From the NCBI GenBank assembly GCA_902510055.1, contig CABWZY010000001.1, positions 212 to 64,211 on the forward strand: 64,000 bases of DNA, in the 5' to 3' direction. The stretch comes from an uncultured Candidatus Actinomarina sp. (GTDB lineage: Bacteria > Actinomycetota > Acidimicrobiia > Actinomarinales > Actinomarinaceae). A program made the translations under genes and the position numbers. The notes under the pieces are model-generated. The model did no database searches. It was not told where the DNA came from and saw nothing but the letters and a program-made list of their open reading frames with translations. How positions within the stretch are numbered: position 1 is the stretch's first letter; every line of letters starts with the position of its first letter. Below, in pieces: positions 27,409 through 61,622 of this stretch.

Positions 27409-28434
27409 TTAAATAATATTTATCTTTTCATTATATTGTGTAGTTATTTCGCCTATTTCCCAGATATCAATTCCGTAATTATCTCTTGCTTCTTTAAGGT
27501 TGATATTTCCTTTATCGGGTAGTGAAATTAGCAAACCTCCGCTTGTTTGGGCATCACAAAATATTTTAATTTTCTCTTCCTCAACTTCATATATTAATTT
27601 ATCTTTTATAGAGGCTAGGTTTCTTTCGCTCCCTGAAGGGTAAATGCCTTTATTAAGAAGATCATGTACTCCCTTAATTACTGGAATATTGTCTGAATTT
27701 ATAACTGCTGATAGCTTTGTCCCGTTTATCATTTCTGTTAAATGACCGAGTAATCCGAAACCAGTTATGTCTGTCAGTGCGTTTGCATTATTATCTTTTG
27801 CAAACTTAAGTGCATTTTTATTTAATGCAACCATGTTATTTGTAGCTTCTAGGATTTCTTCCTCTGAAGCCATGTCTTTTTTTATTGCTGTTGCAATGAT
27901 TCCTGTGCCTAGTGGTTTTGTAATATATAGTTTGTCTTTATCTGAAATGCTGTTGTTAAGTAATGGATTGTCTTTTATTACTCCTGTTACGGAAAAACCA
28001 TACTTCGGTTCTTTGTCGTCAATACTATGACCGCCAATAACGGTACAACCTGCTTCACCCATAACGTCAAGGCCTCCATTAATCACTTCAGCCAAGATAT
28101 CAAAACTTATATCTTCTCTGGGCCAACAAACTAGTTGAAGTGCAGATATAGGGTCTCCTCCCATTGCATAAATATCAGACAAGGCATTAGCAGCTGCGAC
28201 TCTTCCCCAGTCATAAGGATTGTCGAGAATTGGTGTAAAGAAATCTACAGTTTGTATAATTTTTGTTTCACCAATGTTGATCACTCCACCATCATCTGGG
28301 TTTTCTAAACCAACAATTAAGTTTTCAGATTTTAGTGCTTTATGTTGTTCAAATTGCTTCAAAACTTGAGCAAGCTCGCTTGGTGCGAGTTTACAAGCTC
28401 AGCCAGAGCCGTGAGAGTATTGAGTTAGTCTCAT
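27409..28434 (-). CDS. selD: Selenide, water dikinase (selenophosphate synthetase) containing selenocysteine (TGA at 28399-28401)
   Basis: The ORF-track version starts at an internal TTG (28362). Upstream in the same frame lie GGAGG, then 4 nt, then ATG (28434), giving MRLTQYSHGSG-TGA-ACKLAPSELAQV. This matches the E. coli SelD N-terminus RLTQYSHGAGCGCK, with TGA at the Cys17 position. Confidence 0.85.
28364..28398 (-). promoter_or_regulatory. Candidate bacterial SECIS hairpin immediately 3' of the selD UGA
   Basis: In the mRNA GCUUGUAAACUCGCACCAAGCGAGCUUGCUCAAGU, the apical stem is CUCGC/GCGAG with loop ACCAA. The lower stem is GCUUGUAA/UUGC(UC)AAGU with a bulge. I folded it by hand only. 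Confidence 0.45.
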
Positions 28435-36075: not shown

Positions 36076-36081
36076 TATATT

Positions 36082-36107
36082 AAATCTAAGTAGATTTACT
36101 TAGATTT
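36082..36107. promoter_or_regulatory. Perfect 11-bp inverted repeat, candidate HspR operator (HAIR-like position)
   Basis: AAATCTAAGTA-GATT-TACTTAGATTT. The inner CTAAGT/ACTTAG recalls the HAIR half-sites CTTGAGT/ACTCAAG, but the spacing differs. It lies 37 nt upstream of the first cistron of an operon that ends in hspR. Confidence 0.55.
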
Positions 36108-36143
36108 TATTACTAAATAAAGTTAGATAAGAAAGGAATTATT

Positions 36144-36335
36144 ATGAGTTCTACATTAACAGCTTCTTCAGTGAAGCCTGGTGTCAGAAGATCTAAGAGC
36201 TACACATCAGGTCGTATCTGTGATTTTTCCGGATGCGCGACTGTAATAAGCATTTACAACAAAAAGAAACTATGTTTTCTTCACTCTCCAGTCTCTTATC
36301 CAAGGGTTAGAGGGCATTTACCAAGAGAACAATAA
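36144..36335 (+). CDS. 63 aa C-x4-C-x12-C-x2-H mini-protein, first cistron of the dnaK operon (paralog of 58137-58331)
   Basis: A purine-rich RBS (AAAGGAA) precedes the ATG. About half of its positions are identical to the second copy, including all four putative metal ligands and the SIYNK and YPRVRG blocks. Confidence 0.6.
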   Translation: MSSTLTASSVKPGVRRSKSYTSGRICDFSGCATVISIYNKKKLCFLHSPVSYPRVRGHLPREQ

Positions 36336-57059: not shown

Positions 57060-57794
57060 TTAAAAAATATTTCTAGATATAACAACTAATCCTGAAATGA
57101 TTGAAAACCAAATAACTCCATTAGAAATTACTTTGTCTGAAACCTTCATGAATAATTTAGACGAGAGGCTTATTCCAAGAAATGTTGGAATAATCATATA
57201 TAAAAACAAAAAAAAGTGATCTTGATATATTCGACCATCTATTAGTAAAAGAGTTAATGTAATAAGTATCCCGAATGTAAAAACCGCATTCAAAGATGGT
57301 CTAAATTCTTTCCCTTTTGTATCTCTATATAATATTGCTATAGGAGGTCCTCCAACACCTGCAATCATTGCAAAAATGCCTGAAAACATTCCTGCATTAA
57401 ATGAATTCCTAAAATTCCTTTCTAAAGTCCAGCCAAAATAAGAAGCAAGACCAGCAAATAAGACTATCGCACCAACAGTTATTGATAAGATTCTTTGTTC
57501 TAAATAGATTAAACAAAGTAGTCCTAAAGGACCTCCAACAAGCCTTCCAATTAATAAATACTTCATTGGAGACCATATAACCTGTGATCGTTCTCTTCTA
57601 AATATTTTTATCGTTAAGGGAAAAGCTAATAAGCTAAGTAAAGCTGGGACAAGTACAGGATCTATTTGGACAAGAATTGGAGAAGATATTACAGCAAAAC
57701 CATAGCCTAAAAGTCCTTGTATGTATGATGCAATAAATAATAAGGATGCAATAAAGACTAGTTCAAATATTGTTAAGTCGAATGGAATGTTCAA
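57060..57794 (-). CDS. TauE/SafE-family anion permease (DUF81)
   Basis: It is a polytopic 244 aa protein with duplicated glycine-rich TM motifs. Its TTG start overlaps the stop of the upstream selenoprotein gene in a TTGA junction. Confidence 0.75.
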   Translation of the reverse strand: MNIPFDLTIFELVFIASLLFIASYIQGLLGYGFAVISSPILVQIDPVLVPALLSLLAFPLTIKIFRRERSQVIWSPMKYLLIGRLVGGPLGLLCLIYLEQRILSITVGAIVLFAGLASYFGWTLERNFRNSFNAGMFSGIFAMIAGVGGPPIAILYRDTKGKEFRPSLNAVFTFGILITLTLLLIDGRIYQDHFFLFLYMIIPTFLGISLSSKLFMKVSDKVISNGVIWFSIISGLVVISRNIF

Positions 57795-58027
57795 CTAAGC
57801 GCTTTTTCGATTAAACCCAGTATCTCTCCGTCTTCAGTGTGCCTATCTGTTTCTATTTTTGAATAGAGCAAATCACCATTTAAATAAAATTCAAATTTGC
57901 CACCTGAAGTAGGTATTAAGTCGATAGATTTCACTTCTTGACCATATTTTTCTAAAATGTCTTCAACCGTACTAACTGCACGGGGTGTGTAGTTTCAGAC
58001 TACACAGAATTCTAGTTTGATTTCCAT
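57791..58027 (-). CDS. SelW/Rdx-family selenoprotein (CxxU), 78 codons, TGA = Sec at 57995-57997
   Basis: It translates to MEIKLEFCVV-TGA-NYTPRAVSTVEDILEKYGQEVKSIDLIPTSGGKFEFYLNGDLLYSKIETDRHTEDGEILGLIEKALS. The CxxU follows beta-1, and SGG.FE....G.L.YSK is the Rdx/SelW pattern. It is absent from the ORF track because the TGA splits it. A TGATAGTAT extended -10-like element ends 6 nt before the ATG, so the mRNA may be leaderless. Confidence 0.8.
57986..58006 (-). promoter_or_regulatory. 8-bp perfect hairpin presenting the Sec UGA in its loop, with a longer imperfect hairpin downstream (SECIS candidate region 57960-58006)
   Basis: The mRNA UGUGUAGU-CUGAA-ACUACACA has the UGA inside the 5-nt loop. 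Downstream, AACUAC...GUA(CG)GUU and CCGU...ACGG can pair in alternative ways. I folded it by hand only. Confidence 0.35.
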
Positions 58028-58076
58028 AATGAAATACTATCACAAGAAGATAGTAAATATAAAGTTTTGTAAAAGC

Positions 58077-58105
58077 TTGCATGCTACAAGTAAAGTTGTT
58101 AATCT
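58077..58105 (+). promoter_or_regulatory. Possible promoter of the mini-protein/copZA operon
   Basis: TTGCAT (58077-58082), 17 nt, then TAATCT (58100-58105). The palindrome would then cover the transcription start region. Confidence 0.35.
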
Positions 58106-58122
58106 TGTGAATATATTCACAA
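58105..58122. promoter_or_regulatory. 18-bp perfect palindrome containing an exact TGTGA-N6-TCACA core; candidate operator
   Basis: TTGTGAATATATTCACAA lies 14 nt upstream of ATG 58137, in the divergent region shared with the selW-like gene. Confidence 0.55.
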
Positions 58123-58136
58123 AGTAAAGGGAAGAA

Positions 58137-58331
58137 ATGACTGACGGACTAAAAGCTAGTCAAATAAAAGGTGGCATTAGGCCATCAAAAAGTTTTGAAC
58201 AGGGTCGTACTTGTAACGATGAGTCTTGCGAAACAAAATTGAGTATTTATAACAAGAGAAATCATTGTTTTAATCATGCTCCAGTTAAGTATCCAAGAGT
58301 TAGAGGAAGAATACTTCAAGAAACAGCTTAA
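58137..58331 (+). CDS. 64 aa C-x4-C-x12-C-x2-H mini-protein, first cistron of the copper operon (paralog of 36144-36335)
   Basis: The RBS AAGGGAAG precedes the ATG. It aligns without gaps to the dnaK-operon copy, with all Cys/His ligands and the SIYNK and YPRVRG blocks conserved. Confidence 0.6.
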   Translation: MTDGLKASQIKGGIRPSKSFEQGRTCNDESCETKLSIYNKRNHCFNHAPVKYPRVRGRILQETA

Positions 58332-58396
58332 GTATCTCAACTCGACTAAAAAAATAAGAATTCTCAATATAAGTCTTTAATTATTATCATTACTAT

Positions 58397-58600
58397 ATGG
58401 AATTAAAATTTAAAGTACCTGAAATAAGTTGTGAACATTGTAAAAATACAATTGAAACAATTCTTAATAATGAAAATAATATAATTTCTGCTTTTGTAGA
58501 TATTGAAAAAAAAGAAGTATTAATAAATTCAGATACCGAAGTCTCAATCAGTGCAATAGGAACATTGCTTGACGATCATGGTTACACAGTTGTCGAATGA
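58397..58600 (+). CDS. copZ: Copper chaperone CopZ (HMA domain)
   Basis: It is 67 aa with the metal-binding loop SCEHCK in a ferredoxin-like fold pattern. Confidence 0.8.
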   Translation: MELKFKVPEISCEHCKNTIETILNNENNIISAFVDIEKKEVLINSDTEVSISAIGTLLDDHGYTVVE

Positions 58601-60635
58601 AAGCAAGCCTCTAACTCTCTCAATTGAGGGAATGACCTGTGCTGCCTGTGCATCAAGAATTGAGAGAGTCTTAGATAAAGAAACTTCAATAAAAAATGCG
58701 GTAGTTAATTTCCCATTGAAAAAAGCTATTGTAGAGTTTCATGAATCTATTGATACGAATAAAGTTATTGAAAAAATTAAATCAATTGGCTATTCAGCAG
58801 TTGTATTCGAAGAAAACATTGTTGACGAAAAGAAAATAACAAAATTTATTAAACCTGTTCTATCTTTAATACTAACAATACTTCTAAAACCACTTTTTAT
58901 TGAGAATGGTTTTACAATTCAAGCAATTAGTATCGCTATAGTTGTAATTTTTGTATTTGGCTATAAATTTCACATATCTGCAATAAAGAATTTAGTGAGA
59001 CTTAGCTTTAATATGGATACCTTGATTTCAATTGGTAGTCTTTCTTCTTTCATTTTTGCCATATTATCAACAAAGCAACCCTTGATGTTTCTTGAAACAG
59101 GTGCGTATATTGTTTCATTTATATTAATTGGAAAAACTATTGAAGAAGTATCAATTAAATCTTCGGTAGAAATATCTGAAGCCCTTTTAGAGCTAATCCC
59201 TAAAGATGTAAGAGTTTATAACGGGGAATACGTAATGAAAAATATAGATGAAATATCAAAAGATGAAGAAATAGTTGTTCTTCCAGGAGAAGTTATACCT
59301 TTAGACGGTCATATACAAACAGGAGCATCGACTATTGACGAAAGTATTATTACAGGCGAATCAGTTCCTGTTGAAAAAAATAAAGACAGCTTAGTTATAG
59401 CGGGGACAATAAATCTTACTGGCGAAATAAAAATTAAAGTATCAAAAATAAGTGGTGAAACGACTTTTAATTTAATTGAAGATATGATATTTAAAGCTCA
59501 AACAACAAAGCCCTCCGTTCAAAAAAATATAGATAAAGTGACTCAAATTTTTGTACCTACTGTACTTATTATTAGTTTGTTCACTTTTTTCATGAGGTTA
59601 ATTTATTTTGAGCAAGAAACTTTTGTAGCATTAAAGATAGCTATATCTATTCTTGTTATTGCATGCCCTTGTGCTTTAGGTCTAGCAATTCCAATAGTCC
59701 TTTTTAGATCAGTTTCTATATCCAATAAAAAAGGTTTCATATTTAAAAACTTTGATTACTTACAAAAGCTTACAAAAGTGACAACCATTATATTTGATAA
59801 AACTGGAACAATAACAACTGGCGTTTTTAAGATTAAATCAATTATCGCTAAAAACGGAGGAAGCACTGATTTAGTATTGCAATATATAGCAAGCCTAGAA
59901 CAAAAGTCCAACCACCCAATTGCAAAAAGTATATTGCTTGAAGCAGAAAATAAAAATATACCCCTATTTGAAGTAGAGAATTTTGTCGAAAAAGAAGGAG
60001 TTGGTGTTGAGGGAAAGGTAAATGAGAAAAAAGTATCTATAAAAAAAGCTTCCGTAAATGAAGGCACTTTAACTATCTTGGATGTCAAGATAAATGAAAA
60101 TATGTTTTCTATAGAACTAGAAGAAGAAGTCAGAATTAATTCTCAATTTATAAATACTCTTTCAGATAGTTACGAAGTTTCAATCTTATCAGGAGATAGT
60201 AGTAAAAAAGTTCAGGATTTTGGAAAATCTCTAGGAGTTTCGGAATCTATTGGAAGTCAGATGCCTGAAGATAAAGTTAAATATGTAAAAGAAAAACAAA
60301 TAAACAATACGGTTGCTTTTGTGGGAGATGGGATTAATGATTCGCCTGCTTTAAAGCAAGCTGATGTAGGGATAGCAAGTTCACATAGTACACAAATAGC
60401 ACAGAGTGCTGGAGACATAATTATTCATAAAGGCGATATATCTAAAATTATTGACATAATTGATCTAGCAAAGAAATCTCAAAAAAGAATAAATCAGAAT
60501 CTATTCTTAGCTTTTATTTATAACACAGCAATGATACCAATTGCTATAACGGGAAATATATCGCCAAATATGGCTGCGTTAGCAATGGCTGCTTCTAGTA
60601 TTTCAGTTGTGTTTAACTCGTCAAGAAATCTGTAA
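58569..60635 (+). CDS. copA: Copper-translocating P1B-type ATPase
   Basis: It has the HMA motif GMTCAACASRIE, the TM CPC motif, DKTGT and GDGINDSPAL. The start is uncertain (TTG 58569, ATG 58578 or TTG 58590), and all options overlap copZ. Confidence 0.9.
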   Translation: MTIMVTQLSNESKPLTLSIEGMTCAACASRIERVLDKETSIKNAVVNFPLKKAIVEFHESIDTNKVIEKIKSIGYSAVVFEENIVDEKKITKFIKPVLSLILTILLKPLFIENGFTIQAISIAIVVIFVFGYKFHISAIKNLVRLSFNMDTLISIGSLSSFIFAILSTKQPLMFLETGAYIVSFILIGKTIEEVSIKSSVEISEALLELIPKDVRVYNGEYVMKNIDEISKDEEIVVLPGEVIPLDGHIQTGASTIDESIITGESVPVEKNKDSLVIAGTINLTGEIKIKVSKISGETTFNLIEDMIFKAQTTKPSVQKNIDKVTQIFVPTVLIISLFTFFMRLIYFEQETFVALKIAISILVIACPCALGLAIPIVLFRSVSISNKKGFIFKNFDYLQKLTKVTTIIFDKTGTITTGVFKIKSIIAKNGGSTDLVLQYIASLEQKSNHPIAKSILLEAENKNIPLFEVENFVEKEGVGVEGKVNEKKVSIKKASVNEGTLTILDVKINENMFSIELEEEVRINSQFINTLSDSYEVSILSGDSSKKVQDFGKSLGVSESIGSQMPEDKVKYVKEKQINNTVAFVGDGINDSPALKQADVGIASSHSTQIAQSAGDIIIHKGDISKIIDIIDLAKKSQKRINQNLFLAFIYNTAMIPIAITGNISPNMAALAMAASSISVVFNSSRNL

Positions 60636-60672: not shown

Positions 60673-61530
60673 TTGGATATGGATGACGTAATTTGGTATA
60701 GAAAACCATTACTATCAGAGCCTGTTGCTGTTCTAGCTTTTGAAGGATGGAGTGATGCAGGTAATACAGCTAGTGGATGTGTGGAAAATTTATCTGGAAC
60801 TTTTGATATTGAACCATTTGCTGAATTAAATTCAGAAGGATTCTACAACTACCAAATGAGAAGACCGATAGTAGAAGTAAAAGATATTGGTCAAAGAGAA
60901 TTTCACTGGCCACAAACATCATTTTATTCAATAGAAGATTACAAATTAAAAAATGATTTAATTTTGGTTTTTGGAGAAGAGCCTTCAATGAAATGGAAAA
61001 ACTACTCTGAAAATATTTCAAATACTTTATTAGACCTGGGAGTGAAGAGAGCAGTCACACTAGGTGCCTTTTTTGGTCAAGTTGCTCATACTCTTCCTGT
61101 TCCAATATTTGGAGTAAGTGATGATCCTACTTTTCATGCAAGATTTAATGTATTATCTACAAACTACTCTGGACCAACTGGGATAACAAGCGTAGTTGGC
61201 CATGATTTAAGAAAAAATGGTATTGAAACTTCTGGTTTATGGGCTGCTGTTCCTCATTACTTAAGCTCAGGAGGGTATCCAAAAGGAATAAGTGCTTTAT
61301 TAAATAAAACAGCCGAAATATTAGATATAGAAGTTGATGACACCGGAATACAAACCGAAGGTCAGCAGTTTGAAGTACGAATTAACAAAGCAATGGAAAA
61401 TTCTAAAGATCTTGCGGAATATGTCTCTAAATTAGAAGAAGCAGAAGTAAATATTGAAGATAATTTCTCAGAAGAGAACCTAGTTCAACAGATTGAAGAT
61501 TTTTTAAATAACGAAGGAAGAGAAAGCTAG
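60673..61530 (+). CDS. PAC2-family (proteasome assembly chaperone-like) protein
   Basis: It shows the actinobacterial PAC2 pattern (VAVLAFEGWSDAGNTAS ... YSGPTGITSVV). Confidence 0.7.
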   Translation: MDMDDVIWYRKPLLSEPVAVLAFEGWSDAGNTASGCVENLSGTFDIEPFAELNSEGFYNYQMRRPIVEVKDIGQREFHWPQTSFYSIEDYKLKNDLILVFGEEPSMKWKNYSENISNTLLDLGVKRAVTLGAFFGQVAHTLPVPIFGVSDDPTFHARFNVLSTNYSGPTGITSVVGHDLRKNGIETSGLWAAVPHYLSSGGYPKGISALLNKTAEILDIEVDDTGIQTEGQQFEVRINKAMENSKDLAEYVSKLEEAEVNIEDNFSEENLVQQIEDFLNNEGRES

Positions 61531-61622
61531 ACGCTCTTCTTCTTATGTCTATTTGATTTACGACGTTTTCTGTACTTATGTTTCGACATTTTTTTACGTC
61601 GTTTCTTTATCAAAGATCCCAT
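61527..61622 (-). CDS. Actinobacterial ribosomal protein bS22 (31 aa)
   Basis: It translates to MGSLIKKRRKKMSKHKYRKRRKSNRHKKKSV. This matches my memory of the mycobacterial bS22 N-terminus, MGSVIKKRRKRMSKKKHRK. It is too short for the ORF track, and its stop overlaps the PAC2 stop (CTAG). Confidence 0.75.
   Translation of the reverse strand: MGSLIKKRRKKMSKHKYRKRRKSNRHKKKSV

Follow-up and report, generated by a model that had tools for sequence, protein, structure and literature searches.

Known targets of the NADH/NAD+-sensing transcriptional repressor Rex are respiratory, fermentative or heme genes. For Staphylococcus aureus the consensus of its operator is given as TTGTGAAWWWWTTCACAA (PMC2883068), while for Streptomyces avermitilis the operator TTGTGAANNNNTTCACAA has been validated by electrophoretic mobility shift assays and footprinting, with nuo as a canonical Rex target (PMC5355995). 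The footprinted S. avermitilis sites overlap the -35 element, sit in the -35/-10 spacer or span positions -3 to +25 (PMC5355995). Here, we describe a perfect 18-bp palindrome, TTGTGAATATATTCACAA, at positions 58105-58122 of a 64-kb stretch of DNA from an uncultured Candidatus Actinomarina species (this whole stretch is referred to as the window). The palindrome is best read, and probably rightly so, as a Rex-type operator (ROP) on the promoter of a small gene. With the ROPs of Streptomyces, Staphylococcus and Bacillus it shares the identical 18-bp consensus, an overlap with what is predicted here to be the core promoter and, within the lineage, a second copy at nuo beside rex. Unlike in described Rex regulons, the putative target gene encodes a zinc-finger-like protein of 64 aa that lacks annotation, termed mini-protein in the following, and lies beside copper-export genes. 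The Actinomarinales are marine Acidimicrobiia with genomes of about 1.1 Mb (PMC7771536). The window has a G+C content of 33.4%, and close relatives of its genes stem from Candidatus Actinomarina.

Reading of the sequence together with a pattern scan placed the palindrome next to the hexamer TAATCT and 14 nt in front of the ATG (58137) of the mini-protein gene (58137..58331, plus strand), in complete agreement with an earlier sequence-only reading of the window. The site, a strandless feature assigned by consensus match and conservation, has no mismatch to TTGTGAA-N4-TTCACAA and also fits the form TTGTGAA-W4-TTCACAA; nor does it deviate from the S. avermitilis operator (PMC5355995) or from the S. 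aureus consensus (PMC2883068). It is unique within the 64-kb window even when up to three mismatches are allowed, and by an estimate from the base composition of the window, 1.1 Mb of sequence would contain a perfect match to all 14 specified positions about 0.015 times. The putative promoter of the mini-protein gene, as read from the sequence, consists of the -35 hexamer TTGCAT (58077..58082, plus strand) and the extended -10 element TGT-TAATCT (58097..58105, plus strand, with TGn at 58097-58099 and the hexamer TAATCT at 58100-58105), separated by 17 nt. T58105 is common to the -10 hexamer and the palindrome. A TTGnnn sequence 17 nt 5' of the -10 is present in most Actinomarina species, and an A/G-rich block occurs in relatives at the position of the Shine-Dalgarno region AAAGGGAAG (58125..58133, plus strand), which was likewise read from the sequence. 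Transcription is predicted to start at about 58110-58113, within the palindrome. As judged from these elements, the geometry of the palindrome over the -10 and the predicted start is that of a repressor site, and its position falls within the range of the footprinted S. avermitilis sites.

A scan of one genome per species yielded 56 Actinomarina cop-type loci, nine loci from Acidimicrobiia of high G+C content and 15 loci with a dnaK-type paralog of the mini-protein gene. In 57/57 Actinomarina loci (56 species loci and the window) the palindrome keeps its 14 consensus positions without exception, as it does in loci L001-L008 from an earlier set; the only variation is that a few species carry a single substitution among the four central bases. 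In 45 distinct upstream sequences, conservation of the 18 bp reaches at least 90%, and the same holds true for the extended -10 with its consensus TGTTAagCT, while the -35 element, the spacer and the region of the ribosome binding site are variable. Because its 14 consensus positions are unchanged in 57 loci while synonymous sites of the adjacent open reading frame (ORF) are saturated, the palindrome must be under strong constraint. A palindrome arisen by chance was considered and rejected, as 14 positions are constant in 57 loci though the flanking promoter and ribosome binding site vary. The operator-like character ascribed to the palindrome by the sequence-only reading is borne out by this conservation and by the overlap with the -10 element and the predicted start.

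With regard to Rex itself, tblastn searches of the window and of the first 97 loci gave no match. The Rex motif R-[RK]-D-[FL]-S-Y-[FL]-G..G..G.GY was back-translated into a degenerate DNA pattern, with AGR codons for arginine to favour low-GC genomes, and metagenome contigs were scanned for it. Among the 120 Rex-bearing metagenome stretches obtained, six with a G+C content of 30-35% share one type of Rex, which is about 51% identical to Rex from S. coelicolor and about 38% to that from B. subtilis. These low-GC proteins carry the domains PF06971 and PF02629 and bear the JGI name 'redox-sensing transcriptional repressor'. The same Rex is encoded on contigs of 1.07 and 1.14 Mb with 33% G+C, and this size and composition are those reported for the Actinomarinales (PMC7771536). 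Tetranucleotide frequencies of three rex loci correlate with those of the window at 0.90-0.93, compared with 0.83-0.89 for named Actinomarina loci and 0.29-0.77 for most low-GC controls. On locus L155, the neighbors of rex resemble disA, carD, ispF, cysS and rlmB as judged by eye, an order that we take to agree with the one in actinobacteria.

In these Actinomarina-like genomes, rex is divergent from a gene resembling geranylgeranyl reductase, which is followed by nuoA-N. Immediately 5' of nuoA and two genes away from rex lies a perfect Rex box, cTTGTGAAATTTTTCACAAat (at about 8558-8575 in L218-L220, 708-725 in L128 and 5476-5493 in L134), in the same layout as at the mini-protein gene, i.e., a -10-like sequence, the box, a ribosome binding site and the start codon. 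Upstream of rex itself, a TTGTGCA half-site is present only, and no perfect box was seen.

A number of observations weigh against the assignment to Rex. The palindrome contains an exact TGTGA-N6-TCACA core, which is also the core of CRP and GlxR sites, and its central ATAT is nearly as conserved as the arms, beyond what any Rex model would require. A consensus promoter scan does not list the predicted promoter of the mini-protein gene, since its -10 has a C at position 5. As to the origin of the rex contigs, one unrelated low-GC control (L174) correlates with the window at 0.887, and the rex loci L219 (0.843) and L173 (0.796) correlate less well than the other rex loci. Furthermore, rex and the mini-protein locus were not found on one assembly: look-ups with Rex variants led to metagenome contigs only, and a look-up with the small ribosomal protein bS22 gave Actinomarina assemblies and not the rex-bearing contigs. 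Finally, neither a small zinc-finger protein nor a copper ATPase is a known Rex target, and our literature search revealed none. The literature search likewise returned no work dealing with Rex in the Actinomarinales, with control of copA by Rex or with the mini-protein family.

From the site and its placement we infer that Rex binds the palindrome and acts as a repressor. As long as the NADH/NAD+ ratio is low, Rex would occupy the site and keep transcription of the mini-protein gene from starting; upon accumulation of NADH, Rex would leave and the gene would be expressed together with the nuo operon. The site would act on a sigma-A-type promoter (TTGCAT-17-TGnTAATCT), sharing one base with its -10 and covering the predicted transcription start, and the unit under control would first of all be the CCCH mini-protein. 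The operator is of a known type, and its attachment to the gene of an uncharacterised, stress-linked small protein would make this gene a new regulon member.

The mini-protein has a pI of 9.7 and is characterized by a CCCH motif embedded in the sequence R-x-C-x4-C-x4-S-x-YN-x4-C-x2-H-x5-PR-x-RG. Its ORF is intact in all species representatives, so that the disruption that would have spoken against the sequence-only reading was not encountered. Among Actinomarina species, 14, 4 and 61 of the 64 codons vary at the first, second and third position, respectively; with 61/64 third positions variable, synonymous sites are saturated and the ORF must be regarded as truly protein-coding. As judged from sequence identities across these species, the mini-protein (87-97%) is better conserved than its neighbors CopZ (42-76%, a near-identical relative excepted), CopA (43-80%) and PAC2 (about 70-96%). 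An exhaustive profile search (E <= 0.001) retrieved a family of 1172 clusters with a typical length of 60-80 aa. All named members inspected are annotated as 'hypothetical' and stem from Actinomycetota or Acidimicrobiia; a 1316-aa match in the representative search (P0123) was set aside as a repetitive protein and false positive. Residues R24, C26, C31, N39, C44, H47, R56 and G57 are invariant in an alignment of 32 sequences, and R15, S36, P49 and P53 are invariant in an alignment of 47 sequences as well.

Neither the mini-protein nor its paralog in the window matched a Pfam or NCBIfam family at cut-off. Among 47 family members, Pfam searches returned sub-threshold matches to cysteine motifs only, with CxC6 matched by 31 (best E 7e-4) and EsV_1_7_cys by 18 of them, and the curated thresholds of the zinc-finger families SBP, EsV_1_7_cys, CxC6 and zf-C3H1 were reached by none. 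The best hit in a profile search of PDB sequences was an SBP zinc finger (E 0.57). An AlphaFold2 model based on the 47-sequence alignment consists mostly of coil with one short hairpin (predicted local distance difference test score, pLDDT, 70), and Foldseek found nothing below E 4 for it in the PDB; the predicted fold offers no clue to function. The ligand spacing C-x4-C...C-x2-H is the same as in the first finger of SBP proteins and in EsV-1-7 and CxC6 knuckles; in contrast to these, the bacterial mini-proteins are stand-alone polypeptides of 60-70 aa with invariant S-x-YN and PR-x-RG elements of their own.

The relationship proposed by the sequence-only reading between the 64-aa ORF and a second small ORF of the window was confirmed by tblastn (52% identity, E 1e-19). 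This paralog (63 aa, 36144..36335, plus strand) is the first gene before dnaK-grpE-dnaJ-hspR, a position that is the same in 15/15 Actinomarina loci, 30-45 nt 5' of dnaK. Upstream of it, the strandless inverted repeat AATCTAAGT-N6-ACTTAGATT (36079..36110) is conserved in L083-L097 about 60 nt 5' of the paralog. We take this repeat to be a candidate HspR operator, since hspR closes the dnaK operon; it resembles the HspR-associated inverted repeat (HAIR) but has a 6-nt spacer. A third class of paralogs (L014, 5001-5198; L017, 736-930) adjoins a pair of genes for an extracytoplasmic function (ECF) sigma factor and a zf-HC2 anti-sigma factor and lies upstream of a gene for 104-107 aa, followed by Zincin_2, tilS, hpt and ftsH. 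In agreement with the earlier proposal, the two paralogs of the window belong to one small cysteine/histidine family that is tied to stress loci.

The cop loci of high-GC Acidimicrobiia are arranged in the order peptidase M3, mini-protein, regulator, copZ, copA and PAC2. L009 and L011-L013 have csoR as the regulator gene, preceded by a GC-rich box of the CsoR type, and L015 and L016 have a merR-family gene instead. On the complete Acidimicrobiia chromosome OZ244213.1 (L079, 5200-6200), an inversion has placed csoR-copZ-copA divergently to the mini-protein gene, to which it is still adjacent. Contrary to the sequence-only reading, which had the mini-protein occupy the slot of csoR, the mini-protein gene thus lies upstream of csoR (L009, L011-L013, L079) or merR (L015, L016). 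Since it is already present beside csoR or merR in the high-GC relatives, the regulator was lost in Actinomarina, the mini-protein being no stand-in for it. The orthologs of these relatives are 57-67% identical to the mini-protein and keep all motif residues. Conservation of the palindrome upstream of orthologous cop loci, on which the sequence-only reading had made its claim depend, is complete for the 14 consensus positions within Actinomarina (57/57) and does not extend to the high-GC orthologs, which lack a Rex-type palindrome in their 5' regions.

Upstream of 13/13 high-GC orthologs (L009-L012, L015, L074-L081) we detected GGAA[CTG]-N18-GTT instead, and the third-class paralog of L014 has a GGAA-type promoter like these orthologs. 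Such sequences correspond to the stress consensus GGAAT/C-N18-19-GTT of sigma-H (GGAAT) and sigma-H/E (GGAAC), found in Corynebacterium glutamicum at dnaK, dnaJ2 and clgR (PMC10012870). In the window, no promoter of the type GGAA[T/C]-N18-19-GTT was found. While high-GC orthologs thus carry promoters of the sigma-H/sigma-R/sigma-E kind, the cop-side copy of Actinomarina would use a sigma-A-type promoter together with a Rex box, and the dnaK-side copy has a HAIR-like repeat. According to published genome analysis, Actinomarinales possess two sigma factors only and no two-component systems (PMC7771536). In the most plausible course of events, Actinomarina would have lost the csoR or merR gene between the mini-protein gene and copZ-copA and would have swapped a sigma-H/E-type stress promoter for a housekeeping promoter gated by Rex. 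As side observations, a leader block GCAGGCTTCTC(G/C)AGAAAGGGGCCC, containing the ribosome binding site and the short palindrome TTCTCGAGAA, is conserved within the last ~30 nt before the mini-protein ATG in high-GC genomes (L009, L074, L075, L077, L078, L080-L082), and a hairpin after the small gene was read from the sequence of high-GC orthologs also.

Downstream of the mini-protein gene, the window encodes an HMA-domain copper chaperone, CopZ (58397..58600, plus strand; PF00403 with E 3.7e-9, NCBIfam CopZ models below cut-offs), and the P1B-type copper ATPase CopA (58569..60635, plus strand; TIGR01511 with E 6e-134, TIGR01525 with E 6e-140). CopA comprises HMA, E1-E2_ATPase and Hydrolase domains, and its gene starts with TTG at 58569 or ATG at 58578, overlapping the end of copZ. 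This arrangement of an HMA chaperone and a P1B ATPase is common to CsoR- or CueR-regulated cop operons. Unlike in these operons, a regulator gene is absent from the cop locus in the 56 Actinomarina species representatives, copZ is apparently leaderless and the upstream small gene is not a homolog of csoR, copY or cueR. Inspection of the window ORFs by eye and Pfam searches on local genes revealed no CsoR, CopY or CueR, HspR being the sole regulator recognised in the window. The sequence-only reading was therefore right in noting that a canonical copper regulator is missing, and its check for such a regulator came out the same way at the cop loci of the other species.

The same reading had the mini-protein gene head a copZ-copA operon, and this view is not supported. 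A consensus scan predicted a candidate copZ promoter, TTCTCA-18-TATCAT (58361..58390, plus strand), the -10 of which ends 7 nt 5' of the ATG, and copZ of the window has no Shine-Dalgarno sequence. Among 51 distinct Actinomarina intergenic regions, where 49-106 nt without an ORF separate the mini-protein gene and copZ, a TANNNT hexamer whose last base lies 7 (+-1) nt 5' of the ATG of copZ is present in 43 and a Shine-Dalgarno-like motif in one. The closeness of the -10 to the ATG and the near absence of Shine-Dalgarno motifs indicate that copZ is probably translated from a leaderless mRNA with a promoter of its own. A strong hairpin (dG <= -12 kcal/mol, mostly -18 to -32) lies between the two genes in 27/51 regions; those inspected are G+C-rich with a T-run after them, e.g., AAGCCCCTA...TAGGGGCTTATTTT. 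About half of the Actinomarina species, among them L024, L027, L029, L042, L049, L061, L062 and L065, exhibit two hairpins 3' of the mini-protein gene, GAAATCTC...GAGATTTC and the terminator-like AAGCCCCTA...TAGGGGCTT with a T-run. In the clade of the window an intergenic hairpin is absent (dG -1.4 kcal/mol), and a terminator scan of 57700-58700 found none. Judging from these features, the mini-protein gene and copZ-copA probably do not form one operon. Most likely, copZ-copA would start from its own leaderless promoter just downstream, and in the hairpin-free clade of the window it may also receive read-through from the mini-protein promoter.

The exact TGTGA-N6-TCACA core led the sequence-only reading to a site of the CRP/FNR family (GlxR-like); through such a site, the gene would be linked to cAMP or to a signal of that kind. 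Proteins of the Crp/GlxR type are common in Actinobacteria, and GlxR often represses from sites overlapping promoters. We nevertheless consider this assignment rather unlikely. The full 18 bp equal the Rex consensus TTGTGAA-W4-TTCACAA, i.e., the additional Rex positions T1, A7, T12 and A18 match and are invariant (about 0.1 by chance given the base composition); the only other perfect copy found in the lineage is the one at nuoA beside rex; and there is no Crp-family gene among the window ORFs or the fetched loci. The agreement of the full 18 bp with the Rex consensus also speaks against an ArsR/SmtB-type operator (an imperfect 12-2-12 repeat), which the arms of the palindrome had been said to resemble; among the ORFs of the window, we noticed none that is ArsR-like. 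That the palindrome acts as a hairpin in the 5' leader RNA, affecting stability or translation, is scarcely credible. A 7-bp stem with a 4-nt loop could form, but its stability is low (-5.6 kcal/mol, z -1.66, with 14/200 shuffled sequences folding equally well), compensatory changes are absent, the loop is as conserved as the stem and, with the predicted start inside the palindrome, the transcript would lack the left arm. Rfam searches covering the window and the 5' regions of relatives gave no match. On account of the weak fold and the lack of covariation, the RNA hairpin was rejected.

Binding of the mini-protein to the palindrome (autoregulation) or binding of yet another factor is also decidedly unlikely in our view. 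Small autoregulators often head their own units, the mini-protein is basic (pI 9.7-10.2), and its C-x4-C...C-x2-H knuckle bears a weak similarity to the first finger of the SBP DNA-binding domain of plants. Autoregulation is at odds, however, with the high-GC orthologs, which in spite of their 57-67% identity have a sigma-H/E-type promoter in place of the palindrome, with the different inverted repeat 5' of the dnaK paralog, with the occurrence of the same box at nuoA beside rex and with a structural model that is mostly coil. Finally, a role of the mini-protein as copper regulator or sensor of copZ-copA, functionally replacing CsoR, appears very improbable to us, even though the gene stays beside cop across the Acidimicrobiia, including the inverted arrangement of L079, its cysteine and histidine ligands could bind Cu(I) and no other regulator is present at the Actinomarina locus. 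Against such a function, all high-GC relatives examined encode CsoR or MerR alongside the mini-protein, paralogs are located at dnaK and in the vicinity of ftsH, a separate promoter is predicted for copZ in which no conserved operator was seen, and the block from lnt to PAC2 is syntenic, so that adjacency may simply be inherited gene order.

For the mini-protein, promoter contexts (sigma-H/E, HAIR-like and Rex) and neighbors (dnaK, ftsH and cop) point to a stress-linked role, and as a working guess the mini-protein is perhaps a zinc- or thiol-based stress protein. More tentatively, and as no more than a possibility that we hold to be less probable than not, the CCCH family may represent small zinc proteins of stress regulons in Acidimicrobiia, with two or three paralogs per genome (heading dnaK, beside cop and next to an ECF sigma/anti-sigma pair), that were rewired in Actinomarina from ECF sigma factors to Rex. 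Such proteins might serve as thiol/zinc redox switches or as partners in proteostasis, and Rex would then reach copper export by read-through.

In the window, the mini-protein gene is divergent from a gene for an Rdx/SelW-like protein (57791..58027, minus strand; PF10262 with E 1e-16 when an in-frame TGA at 57995-57997 is read as Cys), which is a neighbor outside the mini-protein unit. This TGA is kept in 69/69 loci (67 low-GC and two high-GC), and its product is therefore probably a selenoprotein. The TGA is part of a C-x-x-U motif (EFCVV*NYTPRA) and located in the loop of an 8-bp hairpin that is followed by a second one; a selD-like ORF was noticed by eye at 27409-28362 (minus strand). In most Actinomarina species (L001, L023-L033 and others), a gene for a 633-aa peptidase M3 lies between the Rdx and mini-protein genes. 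The divergent intergenic region of the window (58028-58136) is consequently ascribed to loss of peptidase M3 in its clade. The Rex box accompanies the mini-protein gene whether the upstream gene encodes Rdx or peptidase M3, which does not favour the shared control of the mini-protein and selW-like/TauE units considered in the sequence-only reading. Adjoining PAC2, a highly basic ORF of 31 aa, MGSLIKKRRKKMSKHKYRKRRKSNRHKKKSV (61527-61622, minus strand), is identical in many Actinomarina assemblies; relatives of it match Pfam COX24_C, and it presumably corresponds to the actinobacterial small ribosomal protein bS22.

Candidatus Actinomarinales abound in the ocean and possess hardly any regulatory genes. 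Assigning the palindrome to Rex would define a minimal redox regulon in these organisms, consisting of nuo and the mini-protein gene. The locus would furthermore illustrate how streamlining rewires control, with an ECF-sigma stress promoter giving way to a housekeeping promoter with a repressor box, and with deletion of the copper regulator leaving copZ-copA apparently unregulated. As a new small protein with a link to stress, the mini-protein is a tangible candidate; its family comprises more than 1000 sequence clusters without annotation. Should this family indeed consist of stress proteins that were rewired to Rex in Actinomarina, the reach of Rex would extend beyond its known metabolic regulon to a stress protein and, through read-through, to copper export.

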